The position numbers were made by a program, and so were the translations under genes. The notes beneath the pieces are model-generated. The model made no database searches and was not told where the DNA came from. It was given only the letters and a program-made list of their open reading frames with translations. A DNA stretch of 64,000 nt from a virus (lineage: Duplodnaviria; Heunggongvirae; Uroviricota; Caudoviricetes): positions 49,372 through 113,371 of IMG/VR virus record IMGVR_UViG_3300039008_000325; one strand, 5' to 3'. This document shows, one piece after another, positions 2,358-49,515 of this stretch. Numbering within the stretch: position 1 is the stretch's first letter; every line of letters starts with the position of its first letter.

Positions 2358-3608
2358 TTATAAAATATCTCCTGTTGATAATGGTTTTGTTAAATATAAA
2401 CCTTCAATTGATTTACATCTTGAAAGTGCAACATACATTTGACCTGAAGAAAACATTCCACGACCTTTATCGATAATAACTTCATCTAAAGTTTTACCTT
2501 GAGATTTATGAATAGTAATAGCCCAAGCTAACTTAATTGGAAATTGAGTGAATGAACCAATTTCAATTTTTTCAATTTTATCACCATTTACTTTATAATC
2601 ATAATTAACGAATTTTTTCATTTCCACTTTAATATCTTTTCCGTTAACATCAATCTTAACATAATCATCTTCTATTTCTGTAATAGTACCTGTTGTACCA
2701 TTTACATATCTTCCATGTATATCATTAGTAATTGTCATTACTAAAGCTCCAACTTTTAATACTAATTCTTTTTCAGTTGGATATTTTCCTTCTTCAAACT
2801 TACCTTCAATATCTGCATCAAAAGTATATGAAGTACCTTTAATCATTTCTAAACGTTCTTTATTAATTTCTAACTCTTGTTTTCTATAAGGTGTTAAAGT
2901 AACAATGTCTGTTCTATTAACATCAATATGTCTTTTATTTAATTGATCTACCGTGAAATCAAGGTTCTCTTTGTCTCTGACGTTATTTAATAACTTAATA
3001 AATGAATCATCACTTTGTCTGAACACTGTATCGAATTCAACAATACTCCAATTTTCTTTATCAATTAATTTTGAATCATAGAAATAAACACCATTATATT
3101 TATTAAAATAATGTTCTTCTTCTTGTTTTGAAACAATTGGAGGTAATTGTTCTAAATCACCAACAACGATAACTCTTTTACCACCAAATTCTTTATCTGG
3201 TCTACCACATTTTTGACATGTAACATTGATAGCATCAAATACATCAGCTCTAACCATTGATATTTCATCAATGATAATTATATCAGTATTTTCAAGTAAT
3301 TGTTTTACTTTTTTACTTGGCTTAATTTGTTTTAAATTAAACATTCCAACAGGTAACTTAAAGAATGAGTGAATCGTTGATCCACCAATATTGATTGCAG
3401 CTATACCTGTAGGTGCAACTAACACGATATTCTTCGATTTATATCTCTTTAACAGTTCATTAATGAAGAATGATTTACCAGAACCAGCTTTACCTGTGAT
3501 AAATAAATTCTTTTTATCTTCTTCAATAACATCAAATGCTTGTTTAGCACCTTCAGTCATTATGAAATCTGAACTTTTAGTTTTCTTTATATTATCAAAT
3601 GTTGACAT
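2358..3608 (-). CDS. SF1 DNA helicase (Dda/RecD-like)
   Basis: Walker A ITGKAGSGKSF, Walker B IIIIDEISMV, C-terminal SF1 motifs; stop of this gene abuts start of previous ORF. Confidence 0.7.
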   Translation of the reverse strand: MSTFDNIKKTKSSDFIMTEGAKQAFDVIEEDKKNLFITGKAGSGKSFFINELLKRYKSKNIVLVAPTGIAAINIGGSTIHSFFKLPVGMFNLKQIKPSKKVKQLLENTDIIIIDEISMVRADVFDAINVTCQKCGRPDKEFGGKRVIVVGDLEQLPPIVSKQEEEHYFNKYNGVYFYDSKLIDKENWSIVEFDTVFRQSDDSFIKLLNNVRDKENLDFTVDQLNKRHIDVNRTDIVTLTPYRKQELEINKERLEMIKGTSYTFDADIEGKFEEGKYPTEKELVLKVGALVMTITNDIHGRYVNGTTGTITEIEDDYVKIDVNGKDIKVEMKKFVNYDYKVNGDKIEKIEIGSFTQFPIKLAWAITIHKSQGKTLDEVIIDKGRGMFSSGQMYVALSRCKSIEGLYLTKPLSTGDIL

Positions 3609-6249: not shown

Positions 6250-6702
6250 ATGAGAAAGAAAAGATCTAAATATAAACAAGGTAAATATAAACCTATTAAT
6301 CCTGATAAATATGTTGGTGATATTAATAATATTATATATAGATCGGGTTGGGAATTAAAATGGTGTAAATTATTTGATAATAGTCCTTCAATTATTGAAT
6401 GGGGAAGTGAACCTTTTTCCATTCAATATGTAGGAATTGATAATAAGAATCATAGATATTTTCCAGATTTTGCTATTAAGTATAAAAGTACTAATAACGA
6501 AGTTAAGAGAATGTTAATTGAAGTTAAACCTTTTGCACAAACTCAACCACCAAAAAGACAAAGTAAATTTTACGGGGATCACATTACCACTTATTTAACT
6601 AATCAACATAAGTGGAAAGAAGCTAAGAAGTATGCAAAACGTCATAATTCAGAATTCGTTGTATTAACTGAGCATTCCCTTAACAAATTCACCAAGAGAT
6701 AA
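6250..6702 (+). CDS. head completion protein gp4-like (PD-(D/E)xK nuclease fold)
   Basis: 150 aa, same as T4 gp4; motif YFPDFAIKY...IEVKP resembles a PD-(D/E)xK core; directly downstream of portal. Confidence 0.4.
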   Translation: MRKKRSKYKQGKYKPINPDKYVGDINNIIYRSGWELKWCKLFDNSPSIIEWGSEPFSIQYVGIDNKNHRYFPDFAIKYKSTNNEVKRMLIEVKPFAQTQPPKRQSKFYGDHITTYLTNQHKWKEAKKYAKRHNSEFVVLTEHSLNKFTKR

Positions 6703-15082: not shown

Positions 15083-15159
15083 CGCGGGATAGAGCAGTCG
15101 GGTAGCTCAACAGGCTCATAACCTGTAGGTCGCTGGTTCAAATCCAGCTCCCGCAACCA
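15083..15159 (+). tRNA. tRNA-Met (CAU), initiator-like
   Basis: cloverleaf with anticodon loop CTCATAA and acceptor C1:A72 mismatch (bacterial initiator hallmark). Confidence 0.75.
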
Positions 15160-15214
15160 AAAGATAGTTGATTTCATTTTTAAAAGTTATATAATATAAT
15201 TATAGAGGAAATTA

Positions 15215-15267
15215 CTATTAACCTTTTATAAATAATTATACAGTAACTATTTATAAAAGGTTAATAG
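15215..15267 (+). promoter_or_regulatory. perfect 20-bp inverted repeat hairpin containing a late -10 box and sequestering the SD of the downstream HNH gene
   Basis: left arm CTATTAACCTTTTATAAATA (15215-15234), right arm TATTTATAAAAGGTTAATAG (15248-15267). TATAAATA at 15227-15234. AAGG SD lies in the right arm, ATG at 15268. Confidence 0.6.
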
Positions 15268-15942
15268 ATGAATTATAAAAGAATTTACAATGAAATCATA
15301 GAAAATAGAATAAATAATCCATTTAAAGGTTATACAGAAACACATCATATTTTACCTAGATCATTAGGTGGATCAGATGAAAAAGAAAATTTAGTTAAAT
15401 TGAGTGCTAGAGAACATTTCATATGTCACTTACTTTTAACTAAAATACATAAAGATGATACTATTGAACATTATAAGATGTTAAATGCATTTATTATGAT
15501 GAAAATGAATAGTAATACACAAGATAGATATTTTAATAGTTATTTATATGAAAAAATAAGAATAAAATACTCTAAAATGCAAAGTAAAAAACAATCTGGT
15601 AAAGGTAATAACCAGTATGGTAAAATGTGGATTACAAATGGAAAAGATAATAAATTAATTTATAGAGATAATTCAATACCGGTTGGTTGGAAAAAAGGTC
15701 GTAAATTAAAATCACCTAAAACAGATGCTCTAAATGAAAAATTTAGGAAAAGAAAACAAAAAACAGCATCTAAAAAATTACAAACAACTTTAATGTATGA
15801 AGAATATTATAAAATTTATTGTGAATATGGTTGGGAAAAATTTAAAGAAATAACCGATTATAAATTTTCTCAACAAAATTTAGTAATGCAGTTTAAACAT
15901 CGTGTTAAAGATTACACATCACAACGCGGTAGAAAAAGATAG
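15268..15942 (+). CDS. HNH homing endonuclease
   Basis: TETHHILPRSLGGSDEKENLVKLSAREHFICH His-Me finger; paralogue of 18388 (both begin MNYKR(I/L)YNEIIENR). Confidence 0.85.
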   Translation: MNYKRIYNEIIENRINNPFKGYTETHHILPRSLGGSDEKENLVKLSAREHFICHLLLTKIHKDDTIEHYKMLNAFIMMKMNSNTQDRYFNSYLYEKIRIKYSKMQSKKQSGKGNNQYGKMWITNGKDNKLIYRDNSIPVGWKKGRKLKSPKTDALNEKFRKRKQKTASKKLQTTLMYEEYYKIYCEYGWEKFKEITDYKFSQQNLVMQFKHRVKDYTSQRGRKR

Positions 15943-15943
15943 A

Positions 15944-16017
15944 GGGTTCATAATTCAATGGTAGAATAACCGACTTTTAATCGGTTTACCTAAGTTCGAT
16001 TCTTAGTGAACCCACCA
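15944..16017 (+). tRNA. tRNA-Lys (UUU)
   Basis: acceptor GGGTTCA/TGAACCC, anticodon stem ACCGA/TCGGT, loop CTTTTAA; starts 2 nt after the HNH stop. Confidence 0.75.
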
Positions 16018-16030
16018 AATATTTAATTGT

Positions 16031-16107
16031 ATACCTGTAGTTCAGATGGATAGAACAACAGATTTCTAATCTGTAGGTCATAGGTTCGAGTCCTATCAGG
16101 TATGCCA
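16031..16107 (+). tRNA. tRNA-Arg (UCU)
   Basis: acceptor ATACCTG/CAGGTAT, anticodon loop TTTCTAA, T-arm ATAGG-TTCGAGT-CCTAT. Confidence 0.8.
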
Positions 16108-16117
16108 GTTTTAAGAT

Positions 16118-16194
16118 GGTGTTTGTAGCTCAATTGGTAGAGTGTTTCCTTGTGATGGAAGATGTTGCGAGTTCGAGTCTCGTCAAACACCCCA
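16118..16194 (+). tRNA. tRNA-His (GUG)
   Basis: extra G-1, acceptor GTGTTTG/CAAACAC, discriminator C, loop TTGTGAT. Confidence 0.8.
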
Positions 16195-16205
16195 TTTTAA
16201 TTTGA

Positions 16206-16244
16206 GGACTTGTAGCTCAGGTGGTTAGAGCACTAGACTGATTT
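16206..16244 (+). pseudogene. 5' tRNA fragment (acceptor + D-arm + half anticodon arm, loop CTGATTT), truncated at promoter cassette
   Basis: GGACTTG-TA-GCTC-AGGTGGTTA-GAGC then breaks inside anticodon loop where AATTATAAATAATTATATAA begins. D-arm nearly identical to tRNA-Ile at 20688. Confidence 0.55.
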
Positions 16245-16247
16245 TAA

Positions 16248-16267
16248 AATTATAAATAATTATATAA
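16248..16267 (+). promoter_or_regulatory. late promoter cassette
   Basis: exact consensus; followed by AAGGAATATAATTATG leader shared with genes at 38941 and 53518. Confidence 0.65.
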
Positions 16268-16282
16268 TAAAGGAATATAATT

Positions 16283-16990
16283 ATGAATAATATAAAAATT
16301 GATGAATCTTGGAAACAAGAAAGTGGTAAATATAAATGCCCATATTGTGATAAGGAATATACTAAAAAAGGTATATGTACACATATATGGAGAAAACATA
16401 CAGAAGAAGGTTTAAATTTTACTAAATTACACGATCCAAATAAAGGTTTTAAAGATGGTACTAGAAAAGCTTGGAATAAAGGTTTAACTAAAGAAACTGA
16501 CACAAGGTTAGAAGAAAAAAGTATTAAGTTGCGAGAAAAATTTAATAGTGGTGAATTAGAGGGTTATTGGAAAAATAAAAAACATTCTAACTCTACAATA
16601 ATAAAGATGAAAAATAATAAAAATTGTGGAGGATATAGAAAAGGGTCAGGTAGAGGTAAATCTGGCTGGTATAAAAATTATTATTGTGATAGTAGTTGGG
16701 AATTAGCTTTTGTAATTTATAATTTAGAAAACAATATAAAATTTGAAAGAAATACTAAAAAATTTAGTTATATATTTAATAGAAAAAAACATGATTATAT
16801 GCCGGATTTTATTATCAATAACGAATATATAGAAATAAAAGGTTACATAACTGAACAATGGAAAGCTAAAAAAGAACAATTTCCACATAAGTTAAAAACA
16901 TTATATCAAAAAGATATACAAAAATATTTAGATTATGTGATTAATAAATATGGAAAAGATTTTATTAAATTATACGGCTCTCTAGCTTAG
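16283..16990 (+). CDS. putative homing endonuclease: N-terminal C2H2-like zinc finger, NUMOD3-like repeats, C-terminal PD-(D/E)xK-like domain
   Basis: CPYCDKEYTKKGICTHIWRKH; WNKGLTKETD and KHSNSTIIKM NUMOD3-like; C-terminal H.Y.PDF...IEIKG; last codons overlap tRNA-Phe. Confidence 0.5.
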   Translation: MNNIKIDESWKQESGKYKCPYCDKEYTKKGICTHIWRKHTEEGLNFTKLHDPNKGFKDGTRKAWNKGLTKETDTRLEEKSIKLREKFNSGELEGYWKNKKHSNSTIIKMKNNKNCGGYRKGSGRGKSGWYKNYYCDSSWELAFVIYNLENNIKFERNTKKFSYIFNRKKHDYMPDFIINNEYIEIKGYITEQWKAKKEQFPHKLKTLYQKDIQKYLDYVINKYGKDFIKLYGSLA

Positions 16991-17051
16991 TTGGTCTGAG
17001 CGCTCGATTGAAGCTCGAGAGGTTCTGGTTCGAATCCAGGGGGAGCCACCA
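16976..17051 (+). tRNA. tRNA-Phe (GAA)
   Basis: acceptor GGCTCTC/GGGAGCC, anticodon stem CTCGA/TCGAG, loop TTGAAGC. Confidence 0.75.
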
Positions 17052-17052
17052 A

Positions 17053-17355
17053 ATGAAAATAAAAAAATTAATACTAATATTATTCCTACTAATTAGTAAT
17101 ACGACATACGCAAGTAATTTCATATCAGATAAAGATAATAAAGTAGTAGGTGTTAAAACAGATACAATTAGGTTAGATAAAAGATTATTATATAGAGCAG
17201 AATACAACCATATGAAAGAACGTACACAAACGAGTGCTGCTTACGAGATTAATAAAAATAATTACATAATAATATACTTAATACATAGTAAAGAGAACAA
17301 TATGTTTGAAGAATTTGATGATACTATTAAGATTAGGTATAAATATAAATTTTAG
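17053..17355 (+). CDS. small secreted protein (signal peptide MKIKKLILILFLLISNTTYA)
   Basis: ORF-track call starts inside tRNA-Phe. The in-frame ATG at 17053 gives a canonical signal peptide and uses GGGGGAG of the tRNA 3' end as SD. Confidence 0.45.
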   Translation: MKIKKLILILFLLISNTTYASNFISDKDNKVVGVKTDTIRLDKRLLYRAEYNHMKERTQTSAAYEINKNNYIIIYLIHSKENNMFEEFDDTIKIRYKYKF

Positions 17356-17431
17356 GGGATGTAGCTCAGTTGATTAGAGCACTGCACTGTCACTGCAGAG
17401 GTCGCCGGTTTGAGCCCGGTCATTCCCGCCA
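17355..17431 (+). tRNA. tRNA-Asp (GUC)
   Basis: 77 nt, anticodon stem CTGCA/TGCAG, loop CTGTCAC. Confidence 0.8.
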
Positions 17432-17437
17432 GTTTAA

Positions 17438-17514
17438 GTAGGGGTAGTAGCAATTGGTTAAAACAGTTGACTCCAAATCTTCAGTTCTAGGTTCGAGTCC
17501 TAGCCCCTATGCCA
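17438..17514 (+). tRNA. tRNA-like gene with canonical acceptor and T-arm but non-canonical D/anticodon arms (identity unresolved)
   Basis: 77 nt; acceptor GTAGGGG/CCCCTAT, T-arm CTAGG-TTCGAGT-CCTAG, CCA encoded; no 5-bp anticodon stem could be drawn by hand. Confidence 0.4.
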
Positions 17515-17521
17515 AGATAAT

Positions 17522-17598
17522 GTATCTGTAGCTCAATTGGATAGAGCACTTGGCTACGAACTAAGAGGTTGTGGGTTCGAGTCCTACCAGGTATGCCA
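17522..17598 (+). tRNA. tRNA-Arg (ACG)
   Basis: anticodon stem CTTGG/CTAAG (2 GU), loop CTACGAA, T-arm GTGGG-TTCGAGT-CCTAC. Confidence 0.75.
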
Positions 17599-17630
17599 GT
17601 TAATATAAAACATTTGAAAAGGGAGATAAA

Positions 17631-17867
17631 ATGTTTTTTAAGAGTAGGAAAAGATTTAAAATAGGTACATATTACATTGATGAAAGAAGTAGATTAAGAA
17701 TACTTTGGTTAGATGAGATATGTGAGAAATCAATATTAAAGTTTAATTTTTGCAAATTTATGATGGATAATAAAATCATAACATCAAGTAGTGTAGTGTT
17801 ATTTGATAAGCAAACAAAATATACAGTAAAAGGTGATTGTATAGTAAATTATATACAATCAATATAA
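17631..17867 (+). CDS. hypothetical protein
   Basis: 78 aa, AAAGGGAGATAAAATG SD. Confidence 0.4.
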   Translation: MFFKSRKRFKIGTYYIDERSRLRILWLDEICEKSILKFNFCKFMMDNKIITSSSVVLFDKQTKYTVKGDCIVNYIQSI

Positions 17868-17872
17868 GTTGT

Positions 17873-17946
17873 TACCCCGTCGTCTAATGGTAAGACATGT
17901 GTTTTTGGTGCACATTATCGAGGTTCGAATCCTTGCGGGGTAACCA
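17873..17946 (+). tRNA. tRNA-Gln (UUG)
   Basis: acceptor TACCCCG/CGGGGTA, loop TTTTGGT. Confidence 0.75.
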
Positions 17947-17950
17947 ATTA

Positions 17951-18026
17951 GGGGCCTTAGCTCATCTGGGAGAGCGCTACATTTGCAATGTAGAGGTGGC
18001 GAGTTCGAGTCTCGCAGGCTCCACCA
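17951..18026 (+). tRNA. tRNA-Ala (UGC)
   Basis: acceptor GGGGCCT, anticodon stem CTACA/TGTAG, loop TTTGCAA. Confidence 0.8.
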
Positions 18027-18045
18027 AATTTGAAGGAGAGATAAT

Positions 18046-18291
18046 ATGGTACATCAAGCTCAATTAGTACCAAATATTAATAAAAAAGTTATTAAATTAT
18101 ATAGTCCAGATGGTGATGATGTAAATACAGTATTCTTAAGTTCAATACATGATGTAGTTGAACAACATTTAAAACATGTAGGTGATTTTTATTATGTTAA
18201 TTTTAAAAATAAAACACAAACAGAAGTAAATAAAGAATCATATGATTTAGTTAAAGAGTTATTATTTAAAGATTGTGAATACGTAAATTAA
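18046..18291 (+). CDS. hypothetical protein
   Basis: 81 aa, GAAGGAGAGATAATATG SD. Confidence 0.4.
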   Translation: MVHQAQLVPNINKKVIKLYSPDGDDVNTVFLSSIHDVVEQHLKHVGDFYYVNFKNKTQTEVNKESYDLVKELLFKDCEYVN

Positions 18292-18347
18292 GCAGGTGTA
18301 GTATAATGGCTATTATTACAGTCTTCCAAACTGAGGATAGGAGTTCG
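18292..18347 (+). pseudogene. 5' tRNA fragment (acceptor to mid T-loop, anticodon region CTTCCAAAC), truncated at promoter cassette
   Basis: GCAGGTG-TA-... AGGAGTTCG then CTAAAATTATAAATAATTATATAA; no matching 3' acceptor strand downstream. Confidence 0.45.
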
Positions 18348-18351
18348 CTAA

Positions 18352-18371
18352 AATTATAAATAATTATATAA
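18352..18371 (+). promoter_or_regulatory. late promoter cassette
   Basis: exact consensus 17 nt before ATG 18388. Confidence 0.65.
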
Positions 18372-18387
18372 TAGGAGTTATATAATT

Positions 18388-18957
18388 ATGAACTATAAAA
18401 GACTTTACAATGAAATAATAGAAAATAGAAAACAAAACCCAATTAAAGGCTATACTGAAAAACATCATATTATACCAAGAAGCCTAAATGGAACTGATGA
18501 GAAAGAAAACTTAGTTAATCTAACAGCTAGAGAACATTTCATTTGCCATTATTTACTAACTAAAATGTATGATAAAAGAACAAACAATCATTATAAATTA
18601 GTTTGTGCATTTAATATGATGAATATGAGTGGAGAATATCACACAAGGTATTTTAACAGTTATTTATATGAAGCAAATAAAATACAATTTTCTAAATTAC
18701 AAAGTAAAAACCAAAAAGGTCAAAAAAATTCTCAATTTGGTAAAATGTGGATTACTAATGGAAAAGATAATAAAAAAATTCGAAAAGATGAAATTATTCC
18801 TGAAGGTTTTAGAAAGGGTAGGGTCATACCTAAAGAAATAAAAGAAAAAATAAGAAAATCTATGAAAGGTGTTGGTGTTGGTCGTGTTCGAAGTGATAAA
18901 ACAAAAGCAAAAATAAGTCGAACATTGAAATTGAGACACAGATCAATAAATTTATAG
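18388..18957 (+). CDS. HNH homing endonuclease
   Basis: TEKHHIIPRSLNGTDEKENLVNLTAREHFICH; stop overlaps first nt of tRNA-Ser. Confidence 0.85.
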   Translation: MNYKRLYNEIIENRKQNPIKGYTEKHHIIPRSLNGTDEKENLVNLTAREHFICHYLLTKMYDKRTNNHYKLVCAFNMMNMSGEYHTRYFNSYLYEANKIQFSKLQSKNQKGQKNSQFGKMWITNGKDNKKIRKDEIIPEGFRKGRVIPKEIKEKIRKSMKGVGVGRVRSDKTKAKISRTLKLRHRSINL

Positions 18958-19044
18958 GAGCGATGTCTGAGTGGTTTAAGGTGCTTCCCTGCTAAGGAAG
19001 TGTAGTGAAAGCTACCGCAGGTTCGAATCCTGCTCGTTCCGCCA
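18957..19044 (+). tRNA. tRNA-Ser (GCU)
   Basis: type II tRNA, long variable arm, anticodon stem CTTCC/GGAAG, loop CTGCTAA. Confidence 0.75.
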
Positions 19045-19046
19045 TT

Positions 19047-19120
19047 GAGCTATTGTCCGAGTAGTTAGGTGATAGTCTGCAAAACTATTTACATTGGTGC
19101 AAATCCAATATAGCTCTCCA
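19047..19120 (+). tRNA. tRNA-Cys (GCA)
   Basis: acceptor GAGCTAT/ATAGCTC, stem ATAGT/ACTAT, loop CTGCAAA. Confidence 0.75.
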
Positions 19121-19137
19121 TAATTTAATACAGTTTA

Positions 19138-19225
19138 GCTGGGGTGGTGGAATTGGTATACACGCTAGTCTTAGGAACTAGTTTTCAGAAATGATTTATG
19201 GGTTCGAATCCCATCTCCAGCACCA
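19138..19225 (+). tRNA. tRNA-Leu (UAG)
   Basis: type II, anticodon stem CTAGT/ACTAG, loop CTTAGGA. Confidence 0.75.
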
Positions 19226-19277
19226 TAAACTATTGTTGAATTATGATAAAATTACATTTAAAATGTTAATACATTTA

Positions 19278-19362
19278 GGAAGAGAGGCGAGTGGTTAGCA
19301 AGTGCACTTGAAATGCATCAGAGGTCAAACTCCTGCAGGTTCGAATCCTGTCTCTTCCGCCA
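19278..19362 (+). tRNA. tRNA-Ser (UGA)
   Basis: type II, GGAAGAG... loop CTTGAAA, T-arm CAGG-TTCGAAT-CCTG. Confidence 0.75.
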
Positions 19363-19382
19363 TTATTTTAAGGAGAGTTAAA

Positions 19383-19757
19383 ATGAAAAAAAGATTAGGT
19401 TTCGTAAGTAATAGTTCAAGTAGTTCATTTGTAGTTTGGGGTATTCAATTAGATACTTGTGAAGATAAACTAAAAGAAAAATGTACTGAACAATTGTTCA
19501 AAAGATTATATGATGAACAAGAAGAATATATAAAAGAAGATTTAGTTGAAGAATTATATGATTGGACTGAAGATGATGGATTAGTTGCTAATGATGATGA
19601 ATCAGGCTATATCCAAATAGGTTTATATGCTGAAAAAATGAAAGATGATGAGACATTAAAACAATATAAAGAAAAAGTTCTTCAAAAATTAATAGAAAAA
19701 GGTATAAAAGCTAAATATGAAGATATCCATTGGATAGAAGAAGTTTCATATTGCTAA
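19383..19757 (+). CDS. small acidic protein, MKKRLGFVSNSSSSSF family member 1
   Basis: AAGGAGAGTTAAAATG SD immediately after tRNA-Ser. ORF-track N-terminal extension would overlap the tRNA. C-terminus rich in D/E. Confidence 0.6.
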   Translation: MKKRLGFVSNSSSSSFVVWGIQLDTCEDKLKEKCTEQLFKRLYDEQEEYIKEDLVEELYDWTEDDGLVANDDESGYIQIGLYAEKMKDDETLKQYKEKVLQKLIEKGIKAKYEDIHWIEEVSYC

Positions 19758-19759
19758 CA

Positions 19760-19836
19760 GGGGCATTAGCTCAGCTGGTTAGAGCGGTACGCTCATAACG
19801 TATAGGTCCCTGGTTCGAATCCAGGATGCCCCACCA
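19760..19836 (+). tRNA. tRNA with CAU anticodon (elongator Met or Ile2-lysidine type)
   Basis: acceptor GGGGCAT, loop CTCATAA. Confidence 0.7.
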
Positions 19837-19842
19837 AGTTAT

Positions 19843-19919
19843 GGTACTTTAGCTCAGTTGGTTAGAGCATTCGCTTCATACGTGAAAGGTCGTTGGTTCG
19901 AATCCAACAAGTACCACCA
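19843..19919 (+). tRNA. tRNA with CAU anticodon (second copy, Met/Ile2)
   Basis: acceptor GGTACTT/AAGTACC, loop TTCATAC. Confidence 0.7.
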
Positions 19920-19938
19920 TTTTAAAAGGAGAGTTAAA

Positions 19939-20364
19939 ATGAAAAAAAGATTAGGTTTTGTGAGCAATAGTAGCTCAAGTAGCTTTATTATAGGTATTGC
20001 TAAAGTTAAAGATAGAAAAAAATTAGAAGAAAAATATTCTGACATACTTAGTTGTTTAGATATTAGAACTATTCAATCTTTCGTTGATGAAAAATGGGGT
20101 GGTCTTTATGAACAAAGTGATAGATATATGCATGAATCATTTGACGGTACTGAAGTAACTATATCTAAAGATAATATTAATAAAGATGATCTTGTATTAG
20201 TGGTTGATGATTATGAAGATATTTACCCTGAAGATGATGATTGGGATATAGATTATGATAAAGATTATTATCATCCATATGAAGATAGAATTGATGAATT
20301 ATTATCAGATGATGAAGTAGTTGAACACGGTGAATTTGCTAAAGGTGCTGGTTACAACGGATAG
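19939..20364 (+). CDS. small acidic protein, MKKRLGFVSNSSSSSF family member 2
   Basis: identical SD-ATG context AAGGAGAGTTAAAATG; N-terminal 16 aa identical to member 1; C-terminus DDYEDIYPEDDDWDIDYDKDYYHPYEDRIDELLSDDE. Confidence 0.6.
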   Translation: MKKRLGFVSNSSSSSFIIGIAKVKDRKKLEEKYSDILSCLDIRTIQSFVDEKWGGLYEQSDRYMHESFDGTEVTISKDNINKDDLVLVVDDYEDIYPEDDDWDIDYDKDYYHPYEDRIDELLSDDEVVEHGEFAKGAGYNG

Positions 20365-20374
20365 GAGAGAAGTT

Positions 20375-20680
20375 ATGAAAAAAAGAAACGGTTTTGTAAG
20401 TAATAGTTCAAGTAGTAGTTTTATTTTATTTTTAGATAAAAATGAAAAGACTAAAAATAAACCACAATTCGATGGAGCACATCATTATATCTGGGAAAAA
20501 GATGATGATGGTAACTTTGAATGTGATAGTCAATACTATGTAGATATTAGAAATAAAATATCTAAAGCAAAAGAAGATAATAAACTTGTAATTGAATTTG
20601 AAACAGAAATGAATTCAGATTATGAAACAAGAGAATTATTAGACTTATTAGGTGTTGAATACATCTCATTAGATAATTAA
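20375..20680 (+). CDS. small acidic protein, MKKRLGFVSNSSSSSF family member 3
   Basis: MKKRNGFVSNSSSSSF, GGAGAGAAGTTATG SD, 4 nt after member 2 stop region. Confidence 0.55.
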   Translation: MKKRNGFVSNSSSSSFILFLDKNEKTKNKPQFDGAHHYIWEKDDDGNFECDSQYYVDIRNKISKAKEDNKLVIEFETEMNSDYETRELLDLLGVEYISLDN

Positions 20681-20687
20681 AGTTAAA

Positions 20688-20763
20688 GTCTATTAGCTCA
20701 GTTGGTTAGAGCGTACGTCTGATACACGTGAGGTCCCAAGTTCGAATCTTGGATAGACTACCA
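20688..20763 (+). tRNA. tRNA-Ile (GAU)
   Basis: acceptor GTCTATT/GGATAGAC, loop CTGATAC. Confidence 0.75.
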
Positions 20764-20770
20764 AAAATAT

Positions 20771-20857
20771 GCGTCGGTGGCTGAGCGGTCAAAGGCACCG
20801 GACTGTAAATCCGGCGGGATTATCCCTACCTAGGTTCGAATCCTAGCTGGCGCACCA
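20771..20857 (+). tRNA. tRNA-Tyr (GUA)
   Basis: type II, anticodon stem CCGGA/TCCGG, loop CTGTAAA. Confidence 0.75.
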
Positions 20858-20876
20858 AAATATCATAGAGGAGAGA

Positions 20877-21416
20877 TTGATGACTATTTTACTTAAACCG
20901 CAAGAAACATGGTTAGATTATCCAGATAATGAAAGTCTAGCTATAATAGTTTTCATGGTTGGTTGTGATAATAGATGTGTAAATTGTCAATCTCCTTTTA
21001 TGGCTGATGAAAGTAAATTAGATCTAGATAAAAAATGGCTAGATAGTAAAGAAGATTCGTTCGAATCAATTACCAATAAAATAAAAATAATATTAAATAG
21101 ATATCAAACCAATAAACTTGTTTTATCTGGTGGTGATCCTTTGTTCAAAGGAAATATCGAATTTACAAAGAAGTTATGTAAATATCTATCATTAGAAGGG
21201 ATAGATATTTGCATCTATACAGGTCACAGTATTGATTATGTAAAGAGAAATAAAGTAAAAGATTTTAAATTTGTTAAATGTGGTAAATATACACCTAGTT
21301 TAAAACAAGAATCTTTTAAAAGTGATGAAATAATGCAACTAGCTTCTTCTAATCAAAATTTTTATGATAGTGAATATAATATTATTTCAGATAAAGGATT
21401 TATAAGGTTTAAATAA
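20877..21416 (+). CDS. nrdG: anaerobic ribonucleotide reductase activating protein (radical SAM)
   Basis: CDNRCVNCQSP CxxxCxxC cluster near N-terminus, 179 aa, upstream of nrdD. Confidence 0.75.
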   Translation: MMTILLKPQETWLDYPDNESLAIIVFMVGCDNRCVNCQSPFMADESKLDLDKKWLDSKEDSFESITNKIKIILNRYQTNKLVLSGGDPLFKGNIEFTKKLCKYLSLEGIDICIYTGHSIDYVKRNKVKDFKFVKCGKYTPSLKQESFKSDEIMQLASSNQNFYDSEYNIISDKGFIRFK

Positions 21417-22102
21417 TGAAGATAACAGAAATTATTTTAAATTATATGCAATATTTAGAAAGTTATGAATATGCAAAAATTAACTATAGTGATGATATTG
21501 ATATAGTTAAGTTAGATAATGAAGGAAACACTTCAACAGTTAAAATTGATCATGTAAAAAATAGAGTTTATTTTAATGATGATTTTATATTATGGAGAAA
21601 AGAAGATTTAAATATATTTAAACATTATATAAGAAAAATGGATATATGCACTAACTATTTATGTTTCTTAGAAGATTATTTAGATCAAAAAGGTAAATTA
21701 TATATTGACACATTCACATTCAAACTAAGATACGTAATTGCATATGCTAGTGATGAAATGGATTATAATATAGTTGGTATTACTTCTGATAATAAAAGAT
21801 ATTTCGATTGTTTAGGTATTGAGATGGCTGAAATTAAAGATGAAAATATAATTAGAGCTTTTAAAGAACGTGTAGCTCGTAATGAAATATTTGACAATCA
21901 CGAAGAATATTCTGATATAGCAGAAAGAATTGAAAAAGAAAAAAATCCAATGATATTGGAAAATGAAATTATAGAAAATACATCAAAATATTTTAATAAA
22001 GCTATTCGTAGAAAAATATTAAAATTAGTTGATGATGAAACAATAACGCTTTTTAAGCACATACAACAAACTAAAATAGAAGGAAATAGTAATGAACACT
22101 AA
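21416..22102 (+). CDS. hypothetical protein inserted between nrdG and nrdD
   Basis: ATGA overlap with nrdG stop and 11-nt overlap with nrdD start; no recognised motif. Confidence 0.45.
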   Translation: MKITEIILNYMQYLESYEYAKINYSDDIDIVKLDNEGNTSTVKIDHVKNRVYFNDDFILWRKEDLNIFKHYIRKMDICTNYLCFLEDYLDQKGKLYIDTFTFKLRYVIAYASDEMDYNIVGITSDNKRYFDCLGIEMAEIKDENIIRAFKERVARNEIFDNHEEYSDIAERIEKEKNPMILENEIIENTSKYFNKAIRRKILKLVDDETITLFKHIQQTKIEGNSNEH

Positions 22103-24239
22103 ACCGATTAATGTTAATTATCCTGTGAATAGTGAAGTAAATGAACTATCAGAGGATATGATTAAAGATATAGAATCATTATCAAATGATATGTTTACAG
22201 ATGCTAGTACAGCTAGATCTATTAAAAATATCAAAAAAACTTTAGCAACATCTGTTAAGAAATATAATAAAGATTGGTCTAAAGAAGATATTAAAACAAG
22301 AGTTGATGAAATTCTTAAAATTCATGGTTTATCAGAATCTAATTTTGATTTCATGAAATCATTTGAAAAATTTACTAGTGAAAAATTGAACGATACATCT
22401 ATTGATGATAATTCTAATAAAAATGAAACAACAGTAGGTTCATTATTAGCTGAAACTACAAAATCAGTAAATAAAGTTTTAGGTTATGATTACTTATATA
22501 GAACAATGAAAGAACTGTATGGTAAGAAAGAAGCTAAAAGATTATCTGGTGAGATGTATGACTTTAGTTTAGGTCTATCTGATTCAAGTAATATTTTAAT
22601 ACCTTATTGCTGGGCAGGTGACTTCTCTAAGTTAGTTACTTCAGGTAGAGAATTTGGTGTATTACATTCTAAACCAGCTAAAAGAGTTAATTCATATGTA
22701 TCAATGTTAAATGAAACAATACATCAAATGTCACACCATTTAGCAGGTGCAATTGCTGTAGGTACATTCTTCTTAGATATAGCTCATTTATCAATTTATA
22801 AAGAAAGAATATCTTTAGAAGATTTAAAACATAATAAAGAAACAAGAAAATATTTTGAAAATAGTTTCCAACATTTTATTCACTCTGTTAATCATTTAAC
22901 TAGATCAGGTGGATCAGAATCTCCATTTACAAATGTTTCTGTATTTGATAGAGATAAATTAGTAGGTTTAGTTAGTGAAGATAATTATGGTTGGTACTTC
23001 CCTAAAAGACAAGGTGTATTTAATGACAATTGTAAAGATATTTTAAATGCAGATGAAAATTATACTAAAGAAAATCATCAAGAATTTATTTTAGATTATA
23101 TTGAAGAATTACAAAAAATATTTATTAATTTCTTTGATAAAGGTGATCCAACAAAAAATGGAATGAATTATAGATTCCCAGTTGTTACTGTTAACCTATC
23201 TAAATATGCTGATGAAGAAGGTAAATTAAATGTTAGAGATGATAATGAATTACTTAAATTTATCGTAACAAAAGATATTTCTAAATATAATATATTTAAT
23301 AGTGAAGGTACTAAAGTTTCATCTTGTTGTAGAATGATTAACTCAGAAGAAATGATGGATATGGCTAGTTCAGTTAATTCATTTGGTGGTTCATCAATTT
23401 CAATGGGATCACATAGAGTTGTTACAACAAACTTTGCTAGGTTATCATTATTATCAGATAATAAAGAAGAATATTTTAAGTTATTAGAACAAAGAGTTTC
23501 AGATTCAGCTAAAATATTAAAAGCTCATAAAATATTACTTTATAAATTAACTGGTATGAAATTAAATAGTTTTATTGATAACGGTTTCATTAATTTAAAT
23601 AGAATGTTTTCTACATTTGGTGTTATTGGAGTTGTTGAAGCAGATGAAATAGCTAAACAAAAGGGATTTGTTTCTAATGATGAAGATTTCCAAGGTGAAA
23701 TATTAATTAGATTTGAAGAATTAACTAAAAAATATTCTAGAGAATTTGAAATTATTTCTAACATTGAACAAATACCAGCTGAATCATTTGCAGTTAGATT
23801 AGTTAATACAGATAGATTAATATTTGGAGATACTAATTTACCTTATAAATTATATGCTAATCAATTTGTACCTCTTTGGAAAGATGCTTCAATATTTGAA
23901 AAACTAGAAGCTGATGGTAAATATAATCAATTATTATCAGGTGGTGGTATTGTTCATATTCAATGTAATGAAAACTTAACATCAAAACAAGCCACTAAAT
24001 TAATTAATAAAGCTTGTAGTGTAGGTTGTGAACATTTTGCAATTAATTGTGTTTACTCTCATTGTAAAAGTTGTGGTTATGTTGAAAAATCTAGGAATGA
24101 AAAATGTTCTAAATGTGAAGGACAAAATGAATTCTTAACAAGAGTGGTTGGTTTCTTTACACCAATTGATAGTTGGAATAAGACTAGAAGAGATTGGGAA
24201 TTTGAAAATAGAAACTTTACAACATTAAAAGATGTGTAA
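22092..24239 (+). CDS. nrdD: anaerobic (class III) ribonucleoside-triphosphate reductase
   Basis: C-terminal zinc ribbon CKSCGYVEKSRNEKCSKCEG followed by glycyl-radical region TRVVGFFTPIDSWNKTRRDWEFENRNF. Confidence 0.8.
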   Translation: MNTKPINVNYPVNSEVNELSEDMIKDIESLSNDMFTDASTARSIKNIKKTLATSVKKYNKDWSKEDIKTRVDEILKIHGLSESNFDFMKSFEKFTSEKLNDTSIDDNSNKNETTVGSLLAETTKSVNKVLGYDYLYRTMKELYGKKEAKRLSGEMYDFSLGLSDSSNILIPYCWAGDFSKLVTSGREFGVLHSKPAKRVNSYVSMLNETIHQMSHHLAGAIAVGTFFLDIAHLSIYKERISLEDLKHNKETRKYFENSFQHFIHSVNHLTRSGGSESPFTNVSVFDRDKLVGLVSEDNYGWYFPKRQGVFNDNCKDILNADENYTKENHQEFILDYIEELQKIFINFFDKGDPTKNGMNYRFPVVTVNLSKYADEEGKLNVRDDNELLKFIVTKDISKYNIFNSEGTKVSSCCRMINSEEMMDMASSVNSFGGSSISMGSHRVVTTNFARLSLLSDNKEEYFKLLEQRVSDSAKILKAHKILLYKLTGMKLNSFIDNGFINLNRMFSTFGVIGVVEADEIAKQKGFVSNDEDFQGEILIRFEELTKKYSREFEIISNIEQIPAESFAVRLVNTDRLIFGDTNLPYKLYANQFVPLWKDASIFEKLEADGKYNQLLSGGGIVHIQCNENLTSKQATKLINKACSVGCEHFAINCVYSHCKSCGYVEKSRNEKCSKCEGQNEFLTRVVGFFTPIDSWNKTRRDWEFENRNFTTLKDV

Positions 24240-24255
24240 AAATAATAATTTTTTA

Positions 24256-24285
24256 AAAGCATTAACTTAATTGTTAATGCTTTTT
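24256..24285. terminator. bidirectional intrinsic terminator
   Basis: AAAGCATTAAC-TTAATT-GTTAATGCTTT flanked by T/A runs on both strands. Confidence 0.65.
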
Positions 24286-24401
24286 ACCATTTGTAATTCT
24301 ATATTTGTTGCTTTTTTATAACCTTGTACAAAACCTAAAGCTTCAGCTTTATTACTAGTTTTATAGATTGGTGAGTTTTCTTTAAATACTATATATTTCA
24401 T
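24267..24401 (-). CDS. small hypothetical protein (44 aa)
   Basis: minus-strand ATG at 24401 with AAGGAGAATATAAAATG SD (rc); MKYIVFKENSPIYKTSNKAEALGFVQGYKKATNIELQMVKSINN. Confidence 0.3.
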   Translation of the reverse strand: MKYIVFKENSPIYKTSNKAEALGFVQGYKKATNIELQMVKSINN

Positions 24402-24481
24402 TTTATATTCTCCTTATTGTTTCTTTTAATATAATTATATTATAATATAATTATATTCTTAAATCAACTAAAAAAGTTAAA

Positions 24482-24501
24482 AATTATAAATAATTATATA
24501 A
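24482..24501 (+). promoter_or_regulatory. late promoter cassette
   Basis: exact consensus 26 nt before ATG 24527. Confidence 0.65.
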
Positions 24502-29074: not shown

Positions 29075-30355
29075 ATGTTACAATTTTTCACAGAAATGAG
29101 AAATGAATTAACTAATACTAATTCAAGAAAAGAAAAAGAAGAAATTCTAAAAAAATATTATGAAAAAGATTCTAAATTGTATACTATAGGTTTTTCTTAT
29201 ATGTATAATTATGATCAAATTTATGGTGTTACATTTGATAAATGTCAAGAAAGATCTGATTTAATAACGCTACCTGCTAGTGATGATTATAAGATCACAG
29301 ATTTATTAGATAGTTTAAATAGTAGACATATTACTGGTCATAATGCAATTGCAGAGGTGAACACATTTGTATTATGTCATGAAAAATATAAAGAGATTAT
29401 TAGTTGTTTTATTGATAAAGATTTAAAATGTGGTGTTGGTATTCCTTCAATTAATAGACATAGAAAGGTTGTTAAAACATTTGATGTAGCTTTAGCTAAT
29501 AAATTTGATGAAAAACATCTTAAGAAACATGAAAAATGGTTAATATCTAGAAAATTAGATGGTGTTAGGTGTATAGCTATTATTAAAGATAATGATGTTA
29601 AATTCTATTCTAGACAAGGTAAAGAATTCTTTACATTAGGTGTGTTAAGAGAAGAATTACTAAAAAGTGATATTAAAGAAGGTGTATTAGATGGTGAACT
29701 TTGTTTAACTGATGAAAATGGTAATGAAGATTTTATTGGTATTATTAAACAAATGAGAAAAAAAGATCACACAATTGAAAACCCTCAATATAAAGTATTT
29801 GATTTCTTAACAATTGAAGAATTTGAATCTAAAAAAAGTGACAGAGATCTTTACTTAAGATTAGGTACTTTACATGCACGTAATATATTTAAGCTTGATC
29901 ATGTAGAAATATTGCAACAATATGAATATAATGATGATAATTTAGCAGATATGACAACTAAAGCTGAAGAAAATAATTGGGAAGGTTTAATGCTTAGAGC
30001 TAATACTGGTTATGAAGGTAAAAGATCTAATAATCTTCTTAAAGTTAAGAAAATGCAAGATGAAGAATTTAAAATTGTAGATGTTATATATGGTAAGAAA
30101 CCTATGTTATGTGGTGATAATGTAATGCATGAACAAGATACATTAGCAGCTGTTGTAATTGACTTAGGAGATGGTAATAAGGTTCAAGTTGGTAGTGGAT
30201 TTAGTGATTATGATAGATTAGCATATTATAACAAACCTGAACTATTAGTCGGGAAAATGATAACAGTTCAATTCTTTGAAAAGACTGTTGATAAAAATGG
30301 TAAACCAAGTTTAAGGTTCCCAGTATTTAAATGTATTAGAGAAAATGGAGAATAA
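29075..30355 (+). CDS. ATP-dependent DNA ligase
   Basis: nucleotidyltransferase motif I KLDGVRC (KxDGxR), motif-V-like LLKVKK, 426 aa. Confidence 0.7.
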   Translation: MLQFFTEMRNELTNTNSRKEKEEILKKYYEKDSKLYTIGFSYMYNYDQIYGVTFDKCQERSDLITLPASDDYKITDLLDSLNSRHITGHNAIAEVNTFVLCHEKYKEIISCFIDKDLKCGVGIPSINRHRKVVKTFDVALANKFDEKHLKKHEKWLISRKLDGVRCIAIIKDNDVKFYSRQGKEFFTLGVLREELLKSDIKEGVLDGELCLTDENGNEDFIGIIKQMRKKDHTIENPQYKVFDFLTIEEFESKKSDRDLYLRLGTLHARNIFKLDHVEILQQYEYNDDNLADMTTKAEENNWEGLMLRANTGYEGKRSNNLLKVKKMQDEEFKIVDVIYGKKPMLCGDNVMHEQDTLAAVVIDLGDGNKVQVGSGFSDYDRLAYYNKPELLVGKMITVQFFEKTVDKNGKPSLRFPVFKCIRENGE

Positions 30356-34889: not shown

Positions 34890-36053
34890 ATGAAAGTAAT
34901 AAGCACAGAAAAAAAGCCAATAAAAACATGGTGTAATGAACCAGAAGAAGGTGCAATTGAACAAGCTAAAAATTTAGCTAATTTACCGTTCATCTTCAAA
35001 CACGTTGCTCTAATGCCAGATACACATCAAGGTTATGGAATGCCAATTGGTGGTGTTATAGCTACTGAAGGTGTGATAATTCCTAATGCTGTTGGTGTTG
35101 ATATTGGTTGTGGAATGTGTGCAGTTAAAACGAATCTTAAAGTATTTGATTTAGGTGATGATTTAGGTAATATTATGAGAGATATTAGACAAGCAATTCC
35201 ATTAGGAATGAATCATCATAAAGAAGATCAAGAATGGGAAGGTTTTATTAATTACCCAGATATAGATATATTATGTTCCAACATGAATAAAGCTAAAAGA
35301 TCGTTAGGTACATTAGGTGGCGGAAATCATTTCATTGAAATACAAAAAGATACTGATAATAATGTTTGGATAATGTTACATAGTGGTAGTAGAAACTTAG
35401 GTAAACAAATAGCAGATCATTATAATAAAAAAGCTTTGACATTATGTAAAATGTGGCATTCTAATGTTTATCCATTAGAAGGAAATGATGTATTACCATT
35501 CTTACCATTAGCTACTCAAGAAGGTAAAGAATATTTAGAAGCAATGAACTTTGCATTAGATTTTGCATTAGCTAACAGAATGCAAATGATTAATAAGTGC
35601 AAAGAAGCTTTCCAAAAATATATTGATTGTGAATTTGGTGAAGTTATTAATATACATCATAACTATGCAGCTATGGAAAATCATTTTGGTAAGAATGTTA
35701 TGGTTCATAGAAAAGGTGCAACCTCAGCTAGAAAAGGGCAATATGGAATTATACCAGGTAGTCAAGGAACATCTTCTTATATAGTTGAAGGATTAGGTAA
35801 TCCAGATAGTTTTATGAGTTGTTCACATGGTGCTGGTAGAAAAATGAGTAGAAAAGCTGCTAGAGAAAATCTATCAGTTGAAGAAGAAGTTAAATTACTT
35901 AATGATCAAGGTATTAAACACGCTATCAGAAATGTTAGTGATTTAGATGAAGCTCCTTCTGCTTATAAAGATATTAAAACTGTAATGGAAGAACAAGAGG
36001 ATCTTGTTAAAATATTAGTAGAACTTAAGCCATTAGGTGTTATTAAAGGGTAA
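34890..36053 (+). CDS. rtcB: RNA-splicing ligase RtcB
   Basis: RtcB metal/GTP motifs GGGNHFIEIQ, HNYAAMENHFG, MVHRKGAT, cysteine CGMCA. Confidence 0.85.
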   Translation: MKVISTEKKPIKTWCNEPEEGAIEQAKNLANLPFIFKHVALMPDTHQGYGMPIGGVIATEGVIIPNAVGVDIGCGMCAVKTNLKVFDLGDDLGNIMRDIRQAIPLGMNHHKEDQEWEGFINYPDIDILCSNMNKAKRSLGTLGGGNHFIEIQKDTDNNVWIMLHSGSRNLGKQIADHYNKKALTLCKMWHSNVYPLEGNDVLPFLPLATQEGKEYLEAMNFALDFALANRMQMINKCKEAFQKYIDCEFGEVINIHHNYAAMENHFGKNVMVHRKGATSARKGQYGIIPGSQGTSSYIVEGLGNPDSFMSCSHGAGRKMSRKAARENLSVEEEVKLLNDQGIKHAIRNVSDLDEAPSAYKDIKTVMEEQEDLVKILVELKPLGVIKG

Positions 36054-44244: not shown

Positions 44245-45267
44245 TTAGTAATCACATAACATATCAAATTTAGATATCATTTTATCTACATCACATTGAG
44301 GTATTACTTTCCCATAACGATACTCATTCATCTCTTTCTGTTCTTTTAATCCAACTAATCTAAATAAGTATTTTATATTTCTATCATCTCTCTTAAAGAT
44401 TCTACGTTCTTTACGTGATACATTAACTTCATCAATTATAATATCATAGCCTTCTCGACAATATCTATTATAATCTTTTAATAGTTCTTTATCTATTTGT
44501 TTTTGTTGTTCATTACTTAATGAATTCCATCTATCAACATATGTTTCACCAGTACCGTGTTTCATTACATATTCATCTCTACTAATAACAACAGTATCAG
44601 GATTTTCTTTTAATATTTCTTTACATAAAGATGATTTACCAGAAGCTGGTAACCCTATTAAAATAGTAGTTGTAGGTTTACCCTCATCATATTCAACTTC
44701 TTGACTAATTAATCTTGGTGGAAAGAATCCATCTCCTGATGAAATTCTACCTTGACTATCATATATAGTAAAGTTATGTAATAGATCTAACTCTTCTTGA
44801 GTCATATTCTTTTCTACTAATCTTAAAGTCTTTTCATCTTTTACCAATAATTGATGAAAATTAATTACTTTAATAATTGGTAACATATCAGATTCTTTAA
44901 TATAACCTAATTTAACTAATTCTAATAGTAAATCAATAGCATACATAGAAGACACCTTTTCATGATTCTTAAAGAAGACTCTTGTTCTTTTACCACTATC
45001 ATCAACATCTCTAGTATACACCTTACCAATATCATGTAATAAAGCAATAACTCTTTCTACATTAGTCTTACATAATTTATAAACCATCATAGTATGAACC
45101 CAAACAGAACCTTCTTCATGATAAGGGTTACTGTAATAAACACCTTGACCACTAGATATTACTCTATAATCATCACTTACATAACCGTGATCACAATTTG
45201 ACATTTTAATATAAAGGTCGAAATGAAAATTTCTAAACCATTCAATTAAATTCATTTTTTCTTCCAT
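44245..45267 (-). CDS. HD-domain phosphohydrolase fused to T4-Pnk-like polynucleotide 5'-kinase
   Basis: N-terminal ALLHDIGK HD motif. C-terminal TTTILIGLPASGKSSLCKEILKENPDTVVISRDEY matches the T4 Pnk kinase pattern ILTIGCPGSGKSTWAREF...INRDDY. Confidence 0.65.
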   Translation of the reverse strand: MEEKMNLIEWFRNFHFDLYIKMSNCDHGYVSDDYRVISSGQGVYYSNPYHEEGSVWVHTMMVYKLCKTNVERVIALLHDIGKVYTRDVDDSGKRTRVFFKNHEKVSSMYAIDLLLELVKLGYIKESDMLPIIKVINFHQLLVKDEKTLRLVEKNMTQEELDLLHNFTIYDSQGRISSGDGFFPPRLISQEVEYDEGKPTTTILIGLPASGKSSLCKEILKENPDTVVISRDEYVMKHGTGETYVDRWNSLSNEQQKQIDKELLKDYNRYCREGYDIIIDEVNVSRKERRIFKRDDRNIKYLFRLVGLKEQKEMNEYRYGKVIPQCDVDKMISKFDMLCDY

Positions 45268-49266: not shown

Positions 49267-49515
49267 ATGAAAAAAATATTAGAAAACATTAAAGCATTTT
49301 TTAAAACATTAACATTTAAAAAGATCAAAGATGAGTCTAAAGAACTTGTTGTAAGATCAATAAATGATATATCAGAAAATTTAATCGTAGCAGCTAAAGG
49401 TGTATATGCATTGTTAAAGCTTGCTAGAGATATTATACTTTTAAGTGGATTTTCTTATATCGTATACAAAATTTTAACGTTACTATATACAGTAATTTTA
49501 TTAATCATTCAATAA
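49267..49515 (+). CDS. small membrane protein (holin candidate)
   Basis: 82 aa with C-terminal hydrophobic helices LLSGFSYIVYKILTLLYTVILLII, located in the lysis cassette. Confidence 0.35.
   Translation: MKKILENIKAFFKTLTFKKIKDESKELVVRSINDISENLIVAAKGVYALLKLARDIILLSGFSYIVYKILTLLYTVILLIIQ

Follow-up and report, generated by a model that had tools for sequence, protein, structure and literature searches.

Why do neighbouring genes of one phage encode proteins that begin with the same 16 residues and then bear no detectable resemblance to one another? This question is raised by three consecutive open reading frames (ORFs), here ORF1, ORF2 and ORF3, in a stretch of 64,000 nucleotides (the window; positions 49,372 to 113,371 of IMG/VR record IMGVR_UViG_3300039008_000325) from a virus of the Caudoviricetes. 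A preliminary description of this DNA had compared the three small acidic proteins with T4 internal proteins and with anti-restriction proteins that mimic DNA. All three genes are members of a large family, phage-specific and so far undescribed, whose linkage and co-occurrence with the gene for a radical S-adenosylmethionine (SAM)/SPASM enzyme are very tight. Judged from sequence comparison and gene neighbourhood, the shared N-terminal peptide, which we call the leader, is probably the recognition and modification site of this dedicated phage enzyme, which would serve many protein substrates.

Three genes with a common leader

ORF1 (124 aa; 19383–19757), ORF2 (141 aa; 19939–20364) and ORF3 (101 aa; 20375–20680) all lie on the + strand and encode leader-bearing acidic proteins, that of ORF2 being a member of the commonest subfamily. 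A mechanical ORF scan gives longer frames (19302–19757, 19858–20364 and 20321–20680), which run at their upstream ends into tRNA genes or into the gene before them. The ATGs at 19383, 19939 and 20375 are the real start codons, each after a strong Shine-Dalgarno (SD) sequence on the + strand: AAGGAGAG for both ORF1 (19370–19377) and ORF2 (19926–19933), and AGGAGAG for ORF3 (20363–20369). The preliminary description was therefore right to treat the ORF starts that overlap tRNAs as artefacts. Its statements that ORF1 and ORF2 have the same SD-ATG context and that two of the three genes sit directly 3' of tRNA genes also proved correct: AAGGAGAGTTAAAATG is common to ORF1 and ORF2, ORF3 having AGGAGAGAAGTTATG, and ORF1 starts 21 nt after tRNA-Ser(tga) (19278–19362), ORF2 20 nt after the second tRNA-Met (19843–19919) and ORF3 11 nt after the ORF2 stop codon.

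The three proteins, of the lengths first described, begin with MKKR[L/L/N]GFVSNSSSSSF, 15 of their first 16 residues being identical. On the + strand, the leader is MKKRLGFVSNSSSSSF in ORF1 (19383–19430), the same peptide written with other Ser codons in ORF2 (19939–19986), and MKKRNGFVSNSSSSSF in ORF3 (20375–20422). Past the leader, no meaningful alignment was found among the three. Their isoelectric points (pI) are 4.54, 4.30 and 4.76, and their net charges -12, -19 and -7, for ORF1, ORF2 and ORF3, respectively. The ORF1 subfamily has an internal PSxMKDDETLxxFK motif, and its members often end in [GW][RYF][ND]G. Full-length metagenomic homologues of ORF2 share the leader, internal positions and the C-terminal end GAG[RY]NG-COOH, and orthologues of ORF2 are present in Vibrio phage D479 and Cronobacter phage GAP161. 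The body of ORF3 has no detectable relatives.

AlphaFold2 models were obtained for ORF1 and ORF2, with mean predicted local distance difference test (pLDDT) scores of 79.7 and 80.8. ORF1 is modelled as a compact alpha/beta protein in which residues 1–13 are unstructured (pLDDT < 50) and the first core strand runs from F16. The ORF2 model is an alpha/beta sandwich with a disordered acidic/aromatic stretch at residues 95–108; its first 20 residues have a pLDDT of 68–74, against > 90 in the core. In both models the first long core strand begins at about residue 14–16. Because the N-terminus is unstructured or of low confidence in the models and the bodies lack cross-homology, the leader behaves as a flexible N-terminal appendage on unrelated domains.

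An invariant peptide on a large phage family

The general form of the leader is M-K-x-R-x-G-F-V-S-N-S-S-S-S-S-F followed by two hydrophobic residues, giving a length of 16–18 residues. Among 160 distinct members, F7, S9, N10, S11, S12 and S15 are 100% invariant, R4 and G6 are kept in 159 and K2 in 156, whereas S13 and S14 tolerate T, A, C or V. The leader begins at Met1 in every one of these proteins. At each Ser position the full set of six codons (AGY and TCN) is in use and yet the amino acids do not change, which indicates selection on the peptide and not on the nucleic acid.

The bodies behave in the opposite way. When the leaders were stripped from 326 proteins, the remainders fell into 77 clusters, and profile-profile comparison detected almost no homology across clusters (probability of 0.7% for ORF1-type against ORF2-type). 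The bodies are small acidic domains of 80–220 aa, Cys-rich types among them; the median pI of the family is 4.67, compared with 6.49 in background ORFs, and 73% of members have a pI below 5, compared with 25% of the background. The picture of a conserved leader on divergent acidic bodies, first drawn from three proteins, thus extends to the whole family. Many members fall into recurrent subtypes (for example L014 11065–11589, L037 9120–9629 and L038 4786–5367, by our locus identifiers). One of these subtypes has the leader directly followed by CD/ExCGE...G(M/W)D and probably has a zinc-binding body. The phrog_7397 subtype, of 170–200 aa, ends in His or His-His, and relatives of ORF1 and ORF2 alike have [RYF][ND]G as their very last residues.

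When 1.84 billion cluster representatives (50% identity) were searched with a profile, 733 matched at E ≤ 1e-10 and 15,340 matched at E ≤ 0.001; this second number is to be read cautiously, as the weaker matches rest mainly on the short serine-rich motif. The 150 best matches are ORF2-type, except for the record of ORF1 itself (P0014) and a 247-aa protein, P0163, that carries the leader twice, at residues 1 and 119, and stems either from two tandem family genes fused into one or from a read-through of gene calling. On large viral contigs (up to 548 kb), leader genes form tandem same-strand arrays of up to 14. The loci that we fetched contained 509 leader ORFs, 385 of them distinct, and these counts are conservative since the search pattern missed Cys/Val variants at positions 13–14. 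Since hundreds of other phage proteins also begin with this leader, its sharing among the three genes of the window is far beyond chance.

Cultured carriers of the family are Vibrio phage D479, with four members, and T4-like enterobacterial phages of the RB16/RB43/KP15/GAP161 group; related phages therefore do have the conserved family that the preliminary description had made a touchstone of its proposal. One leader-protein subtype is matched by 162 cultured-phage records, and GAP161 has two members within 10 kb, in the nrdC.11 region. In the genome collection, the family was found in metagenome-assembled bins only, the isolates being without it. Members in cultured carriers, D479 included, are annotated as 'hypothetical protein'; a gene near those of D479 is labelled 'virion structural protein'.

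As had been foreseen, the family could not be annotated by motif. Searches of Pfam, NCBIfam and PHROGs with the three proteins and other subtypes gave no curated family and only a weak N-terminal match to the unannotated phrog_7397, and a PDB sequence search with the family profile gave only spurious matches of antibody CDR-H3 to the acidic/aromatic stretch. Two existing labels, 'YubB ferredoxin-like domain-containing' on a phrog_7397-type protein in UniRef and 'head-tail adaptor' on ORF2-type proteins in two Klebsiella phage records in GenBank, were not reproduced by Pfam or PHROGs. Two resemblances of the leader itself were also rejected. The motif RVxG[FYW] of C-terminal glycyl-radical domains recalls its R-x-G-F, which stands at the N-terminus with other spacing, and there was no match to the Pfam Gly_radical family. 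The start of a type IV prepilin-like signal is matched by MKxRxG-F, which is followed by SNSSSSS instead of a hydrophobic helix of some 20 residues and has no Glu at +5. Literature searches for the leader motif, for D479 and for a phage radical SAM enzyme of this kind found no relevant paper in the library searched, nor did any virion proteomics of a carrier come to light.

Linkage to a radical SAM/SPASM enzyme

Clustering of all non-family ORFs near the leader arrays brought out one gene, far above all others, that encodes a protein of 300–395 aa. No other gene recurred alongside the arrays, and neither a protease nor an exporter was recurrent in the loci. In the related loci, Pfam assigned Radical_SAM (PF04055) and SPASM (PF13186) domains to this protein, with the SPASM/twitch domain at the C-terminus. 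The protein has an invariant CX3CX2C motif (C57/C61/C64) and four more invariant cysteines (C248, C273, C291 and C345), a number that suggests one auxiliary cluster and not two. No curated equivalog or family covers the enzyme. Its nearest characterised relatives, all weak matches, are the peptide and protein maturases SuiB, SkfB, BtrN, MftC and NirJ2. The first 50 residues, which precede the radical SAM core, form an extension with the conserved sequence YNYxFNKxxGxFxRWGKTxxDDPxxSPxGPE and no Pfam match; this extension could be a peptide-docking element.

At 23 of 40 non-redundant loci anchored on leader genes, the enzyme gene lies on the same strand and within 6 kb of the array, at 0–3 kb from it or inside it. 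At four more (L001, D479, L004 and L018) it lies farther off on the same contig or genome, the D479 enzyme being VPHD479_0104. The body of ORF1 belongs to cluster 1, relatives of which occur inside such enzyme-linked arrays. The association also holds in the reverse direction. Of 80 viral loci anchored on the enzyme, 64 were on contigs new to the analysis, and 59 of these 64 had leader ORFs within 10 kb, 222 in total, of which 221 are on the strand of the enzyme gene and often start just past its stop codon. Four of the five exceptions are T4-type genomes of 174–180 kb (KP15, RB16 and two close relatives), and the fifth is a 37.8-kb contig (L101). In a metagenome replicate, leader ORFs were present at 58 of 80 enzyme loci among the matches listed, and at 40 of the 49 with a flank of ≥ 3 kb; the median distance from the enzyme stop codon to the first leader gene at the loci listed was 277 nt.

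Of 50,697 cultured-phage records, 172 contain the enzyme. Their genus composition (Klebsiella, Enterobacter, Cronobacter, Citrobacter and Escherichia phages of the RB16/RB43 type) is that of the 162 leader-family records, with the addition of Vibrio phage D479. At least 14 accessions are common to the enzyme and leader lists among the matches listed, and in these the two genes are always about 20 kb apart. In RB16 the enzyme gene is at 90475–91512 of HM134276.1.

A probable maturase with many tagged substrates

One conserved radical SAM/SPASM enzyme, many adjacent genes with an invariant leader and strict co-occurrence of the two argue for an enzyme that acts on many tagged substrates. A many-to-one constraint, in which a single reader serves every substrate, fits a tag of such extreme invariance. 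We propose that the flexible, basic N-terminal peptide would dock in the enzyme, that the tag would then be oxidised or cross-linked, and that each body might afterwards perform a task of its own. The candidate modified residues are S9, N10, S11, S12 and S15, with F7 and F16 on either side; modification at S13 or S14 is unlikely because Ala, Cys or Val is tolerated there. Oxidation of Ser to formylglycine and an F-x-S type cyclophane are leads for the chemistry. As to the role of the leader proteins, their acidity, diversity and location in accessory regions make early host takeover or anti-defence our guess.

The arrangement has close parallels in the radical SAM/SPASM systems that make RiPPs (peptides synthesised on ribosomes and modified after translation), such as those of streptide (StrB/SuiB), sactipeptides (SkfB/AlbA), SCIFF (CteB) and cyclophanes (XyeB/FxsB). 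There, as here, a single radical SAM enzyme with a C-terminal auxiliary Fe-S domain is encoded beside one or many small genes that have a conserved N-terminal sequence in common. The differences are considerable. RiPP enzymes act on peptides, whereas the phage proteins are folded, acidic and 80–220 aa long; the RiPP leader is later removed, whereas the 16–18 residues at the extreme N-terminus of the phage proteins are most likely the modified site itself; and RiPP systems belong to bacterial gene clusters, whereas the present system is in phages, with no RiPP recognition element detected and no protease or exporter in the locus. Radical SAM/SPASM enzymes are known to act on precursors that bear a leader as well as on Ser within a full-length protein (PMC10114670). 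The latter is the case of AtsB/anSME, which modifies Ser within a short conserved motif of full-length sulfatases and does so without a separate recognition domain (PMC10114670). The phage enzyme is of similar size to this radical SAM/SPASM enzyme, but the anSME substrate motif (C/S)xPxR is absent from the leader. An identity of the enzyme with anSME was rejected, as no anSME model of NCBIfam matched it at E ≤ 0.01.

Several points weigh against the proposal of a tag-modifying enzyme. The evidence that the enzyme modifies the leader consists of genomic association only, and this association has gaps: 13 of the 40 leader-anchored loci had no enzyme gene in the 8–20 kb covered, and in T4-type isolates the enzyme and leader genes, some 20 kb apart, do not form one operon. 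A RiPP recognition element was not detected in the enzyme, for which Pfam gave Radical_SAM and SPASM only. The substrates would be folded proteins of 80–220 aa, confidently modelled; anSME and QhpD aside, this is unusual for enzymes of the class. Lastly, no homologue of the enzyme was found in the 64-kb window and 15 kb of flanks, that is, in 79 kb of the 141-kb contig, where NrdG is the only CX3CX2C protein. This absence is not informative, because a separation of about 20 kb is normal in T4-type isolates; we predict that this phage encodes the enzyme in the other 62 kb of the contig.

On balance, and a shade more cautiously, we lean towards the view that T4-like and jumbo phages possess, at the level of whole proteins, an analogue of RiPP maturation, a radical modification (for example, of Ser to formylglycine, or a Phe/Ser cross-link) of a Ser-rich tag on up to 14 unrelated acidic proteins per genome. 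Maturation of tagged substrates is itself known; what would be unusual is radical SAM/SPASM maturation that is phage-encoded, acts on folded proteins and reads a new invariant motif. If so, a whole class of phage accessory proteins would undergo a previously unrecognised post-translational arming step, and one unstudied enzyme would control the maturation of hundreds to thousands of 'hypothetical' sequence clusters. Radical SAM/SPASM maturation would no longer be confined to peptides and a few enzymes but would take in a broad family of viral proteins that are folded, and a new, extremely conserved modification motif would be defined. Cultured phages of E. coli, Klebsiella, Cronobacter and Vibrio that are genetically tractable (RB16, RB43, KP15, GAP161 and D479) carry the system, and the invariant 16-residue tag is a possible portable handle for enzyme-directed protein modification.

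Alternative explanations of the leader

The leader might instead be a capsid- or virion-targeting tag that loads diverse proteins into the prohead for injection with the DNA. The internal proteins of T-even phages are such a set, hypervariable small proteins that share only a short conserved N-terminal peptide (PMC3012670). The leader family has the same layout, with an invariant leader on unrelated bodies, and both the phage of the window and the cultured carriers are T4-like. To this extent the analogy with T4 internal proteins in the preliminary description stands; several points tell against it. The capsid-targeting sequence of T4 is MKTYQEFIAE, and the leader is unrelated to it. Processing after the SSSSSF block, which had been suggested, has no counterpart in the alignments: there is no conserved gp21-type cleavage site and no conserved Glu, and positions 19–24 are variable. 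The genes lie in accessory or early-type regions (an island of tRNA and homing endonuclease genes here, the nrdC.11 region in GAP161). No T4-type late promoter TATAAATA occurs on the + strand of 18362–24485, while most structural genes of the window have one just upstream. In D479 it is a nearby gene, and not the family members, that bears the label 'virion structural protein'. Targeting to the capsid would also leave the tight radical SAM linkage unexplained, and we consider it unlikely. The preliminary description was thus correct in seeing a common N-terminal tag, and the linkage to the enzyme points to a tag that is read by a modifying enzyme rather than one for packaging or export, although these ideas are not mutually exclusive.

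Somewhat less probable still is that the acidic bodies imitate DNA and block restriction or other DNA-binding defences, as Ocr and ArdA do. Ocr and ArdA are small, very acidic, early-expressed phage or plasmid proteins, and the leader proteins match them in acidity. The high negative charge on which this analogy was first built is confirmed for the family by the pI distribution given above; ORF2 has a conserved acidic/aromatic stretch, which is of low confidence in its model, and the diverse multi-copy arrays resemble an arsenal. Kinship with these proteins was not found: Ocr and ArdA lack a shared N-terminal tag, no Pfam or NCBIfam match to their families appeared at E ≤ 10, and neither sequence nor fold similarity to them was detected. 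Acidity is common among small phage early proteins, which counts against the idea, and several subfamilies are kept across very distant phages, a pattern more in keeping with a fixed function than with an effector in an arms race. Packaging and DNA mimicry therefore remain minor, non-exclusive ideas, the second of which has charge alone in its favour.

About as improbable as DNA mimicry is a role of the leader proteins as partners of the radical SAM enzyme, that is, as specificity adaptors or regulators that dock through a common peptide and are not themselves substrates. The linkage data apply equally to partners, and each of the diverse bodies could have its own target to bind. Nevertheless, a Ser-rich peptide that is invariant, flexible and placed at a free terminus looks like a substrate site, and peptides or proteins are what the known relatives of the enzyme act on directly. 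As many as 14 adaptors per radical SAM/SPASM enzyme would, to our knowledge, be without precedent, which also counts against partners.

It is very unlikely that all members have a single fold to which the leader belongs as an integral structural or active-site element, the family being one diverged enzyme or binding domain. Such a fold would accord with the hydrophobic beta-strand that always follows the motif, with the strands at residues 2–5 and 14–23 of the ORF2 model and with the terminal [RYF][ND]G that is common to ORF1-type and ORF2-type proteins. It is contradicted by the lack of profile-level similarity between bodies of different clusters, by the unstructured residues 1–13 of the ORF1 model and by a body size that ranges from 80 to 220 aa and includes Cys-rich types. 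That the conserved 5' end is a nucleic-acid signal, for translation control or recombination, with the peptide incidental, is suggested by the identical SD-ATG context of ORF1 and ORF2 and refuted, for practical purposes, by the free use of Ser codons at the invariant positions of the 160 members.

Genomic setting of the three genes

The window encodes T4-type portal, tail sheath, baseplate and neck proteins, gp2, gp15, the major head protein and terminase, as well as RtcB, DNA ligase and UvsY, on the basis of which its phage is a distant T4-like myovirus. The window corresponds to bases 49,094–113,093 of a JGI metagenome contig (Ga0495723_43156) of 141,128 bp, and the G+C content is 26.6%. 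In the cultured-phage collection, the closest matches to the window are tRNA fragments only, and scans for promoters and terminators gave signals no higher than in shuffled controls.

The three leader genes are embedded in a cluster of 18 tRNA genes in less than 6 kb (15083–20857), three tRNA-Met(cat) included, with homing endonuclease genes among the tRNAs (15268–15942 and 18388–18957), just upstream of nrdG and nrdD. The end of the HNH gene is the start of tRNA-Ser(gct), exactly at 18957. Both tRNA-Ser(gct) and tRNA-Ser(tga) are in the cluster and decode AGY and UCA codons, which the Ser-rich leaders use. The interleaving with tRNA genes, which had been described for these three genes, did not hold as a family trait: only 16 of 40 related loci have a tRNA gene within 10 kb, and most arrays are without any. 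A tRNA at 2994–3065 of locus L015 has the anticodon CTA and was called tRNA-Pyl by ARAGORN (amber-suppressor type); L015 is a viral contig of 162 kb on which the enzyme and eight leader genes are also encoded, and this tRNA may be a sign of stop-codon recoding.

Directly downstream of the three genes, 20880–24239 contains nrdG, encoding a radical SAM activase, a 228-aa ORF (21416–22102) and nrdD, whose product carries the glycyl-radical motif TRVVGFF. An RtcB tRNA-splicing ligase (34890–36053), an ATP-dependent DNA ligase (29075–30355) and a polynucleotide-kinase-like ATPase (44245–45267) are also encoded in the window, and these, taken with the tRNA cluster, resemble a set of genes for tRNA repair. 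A 150-aa ORF at 6250–6702, directly after the T4-type portal gene, has a TnsA-like N-terminal endonuclease domain (PF08722, precomputed match). To the left of the window on the source contig (L047 15372–16970), the phage encodes a Cpn60/GroEL-type chaperonin of 532 aa.

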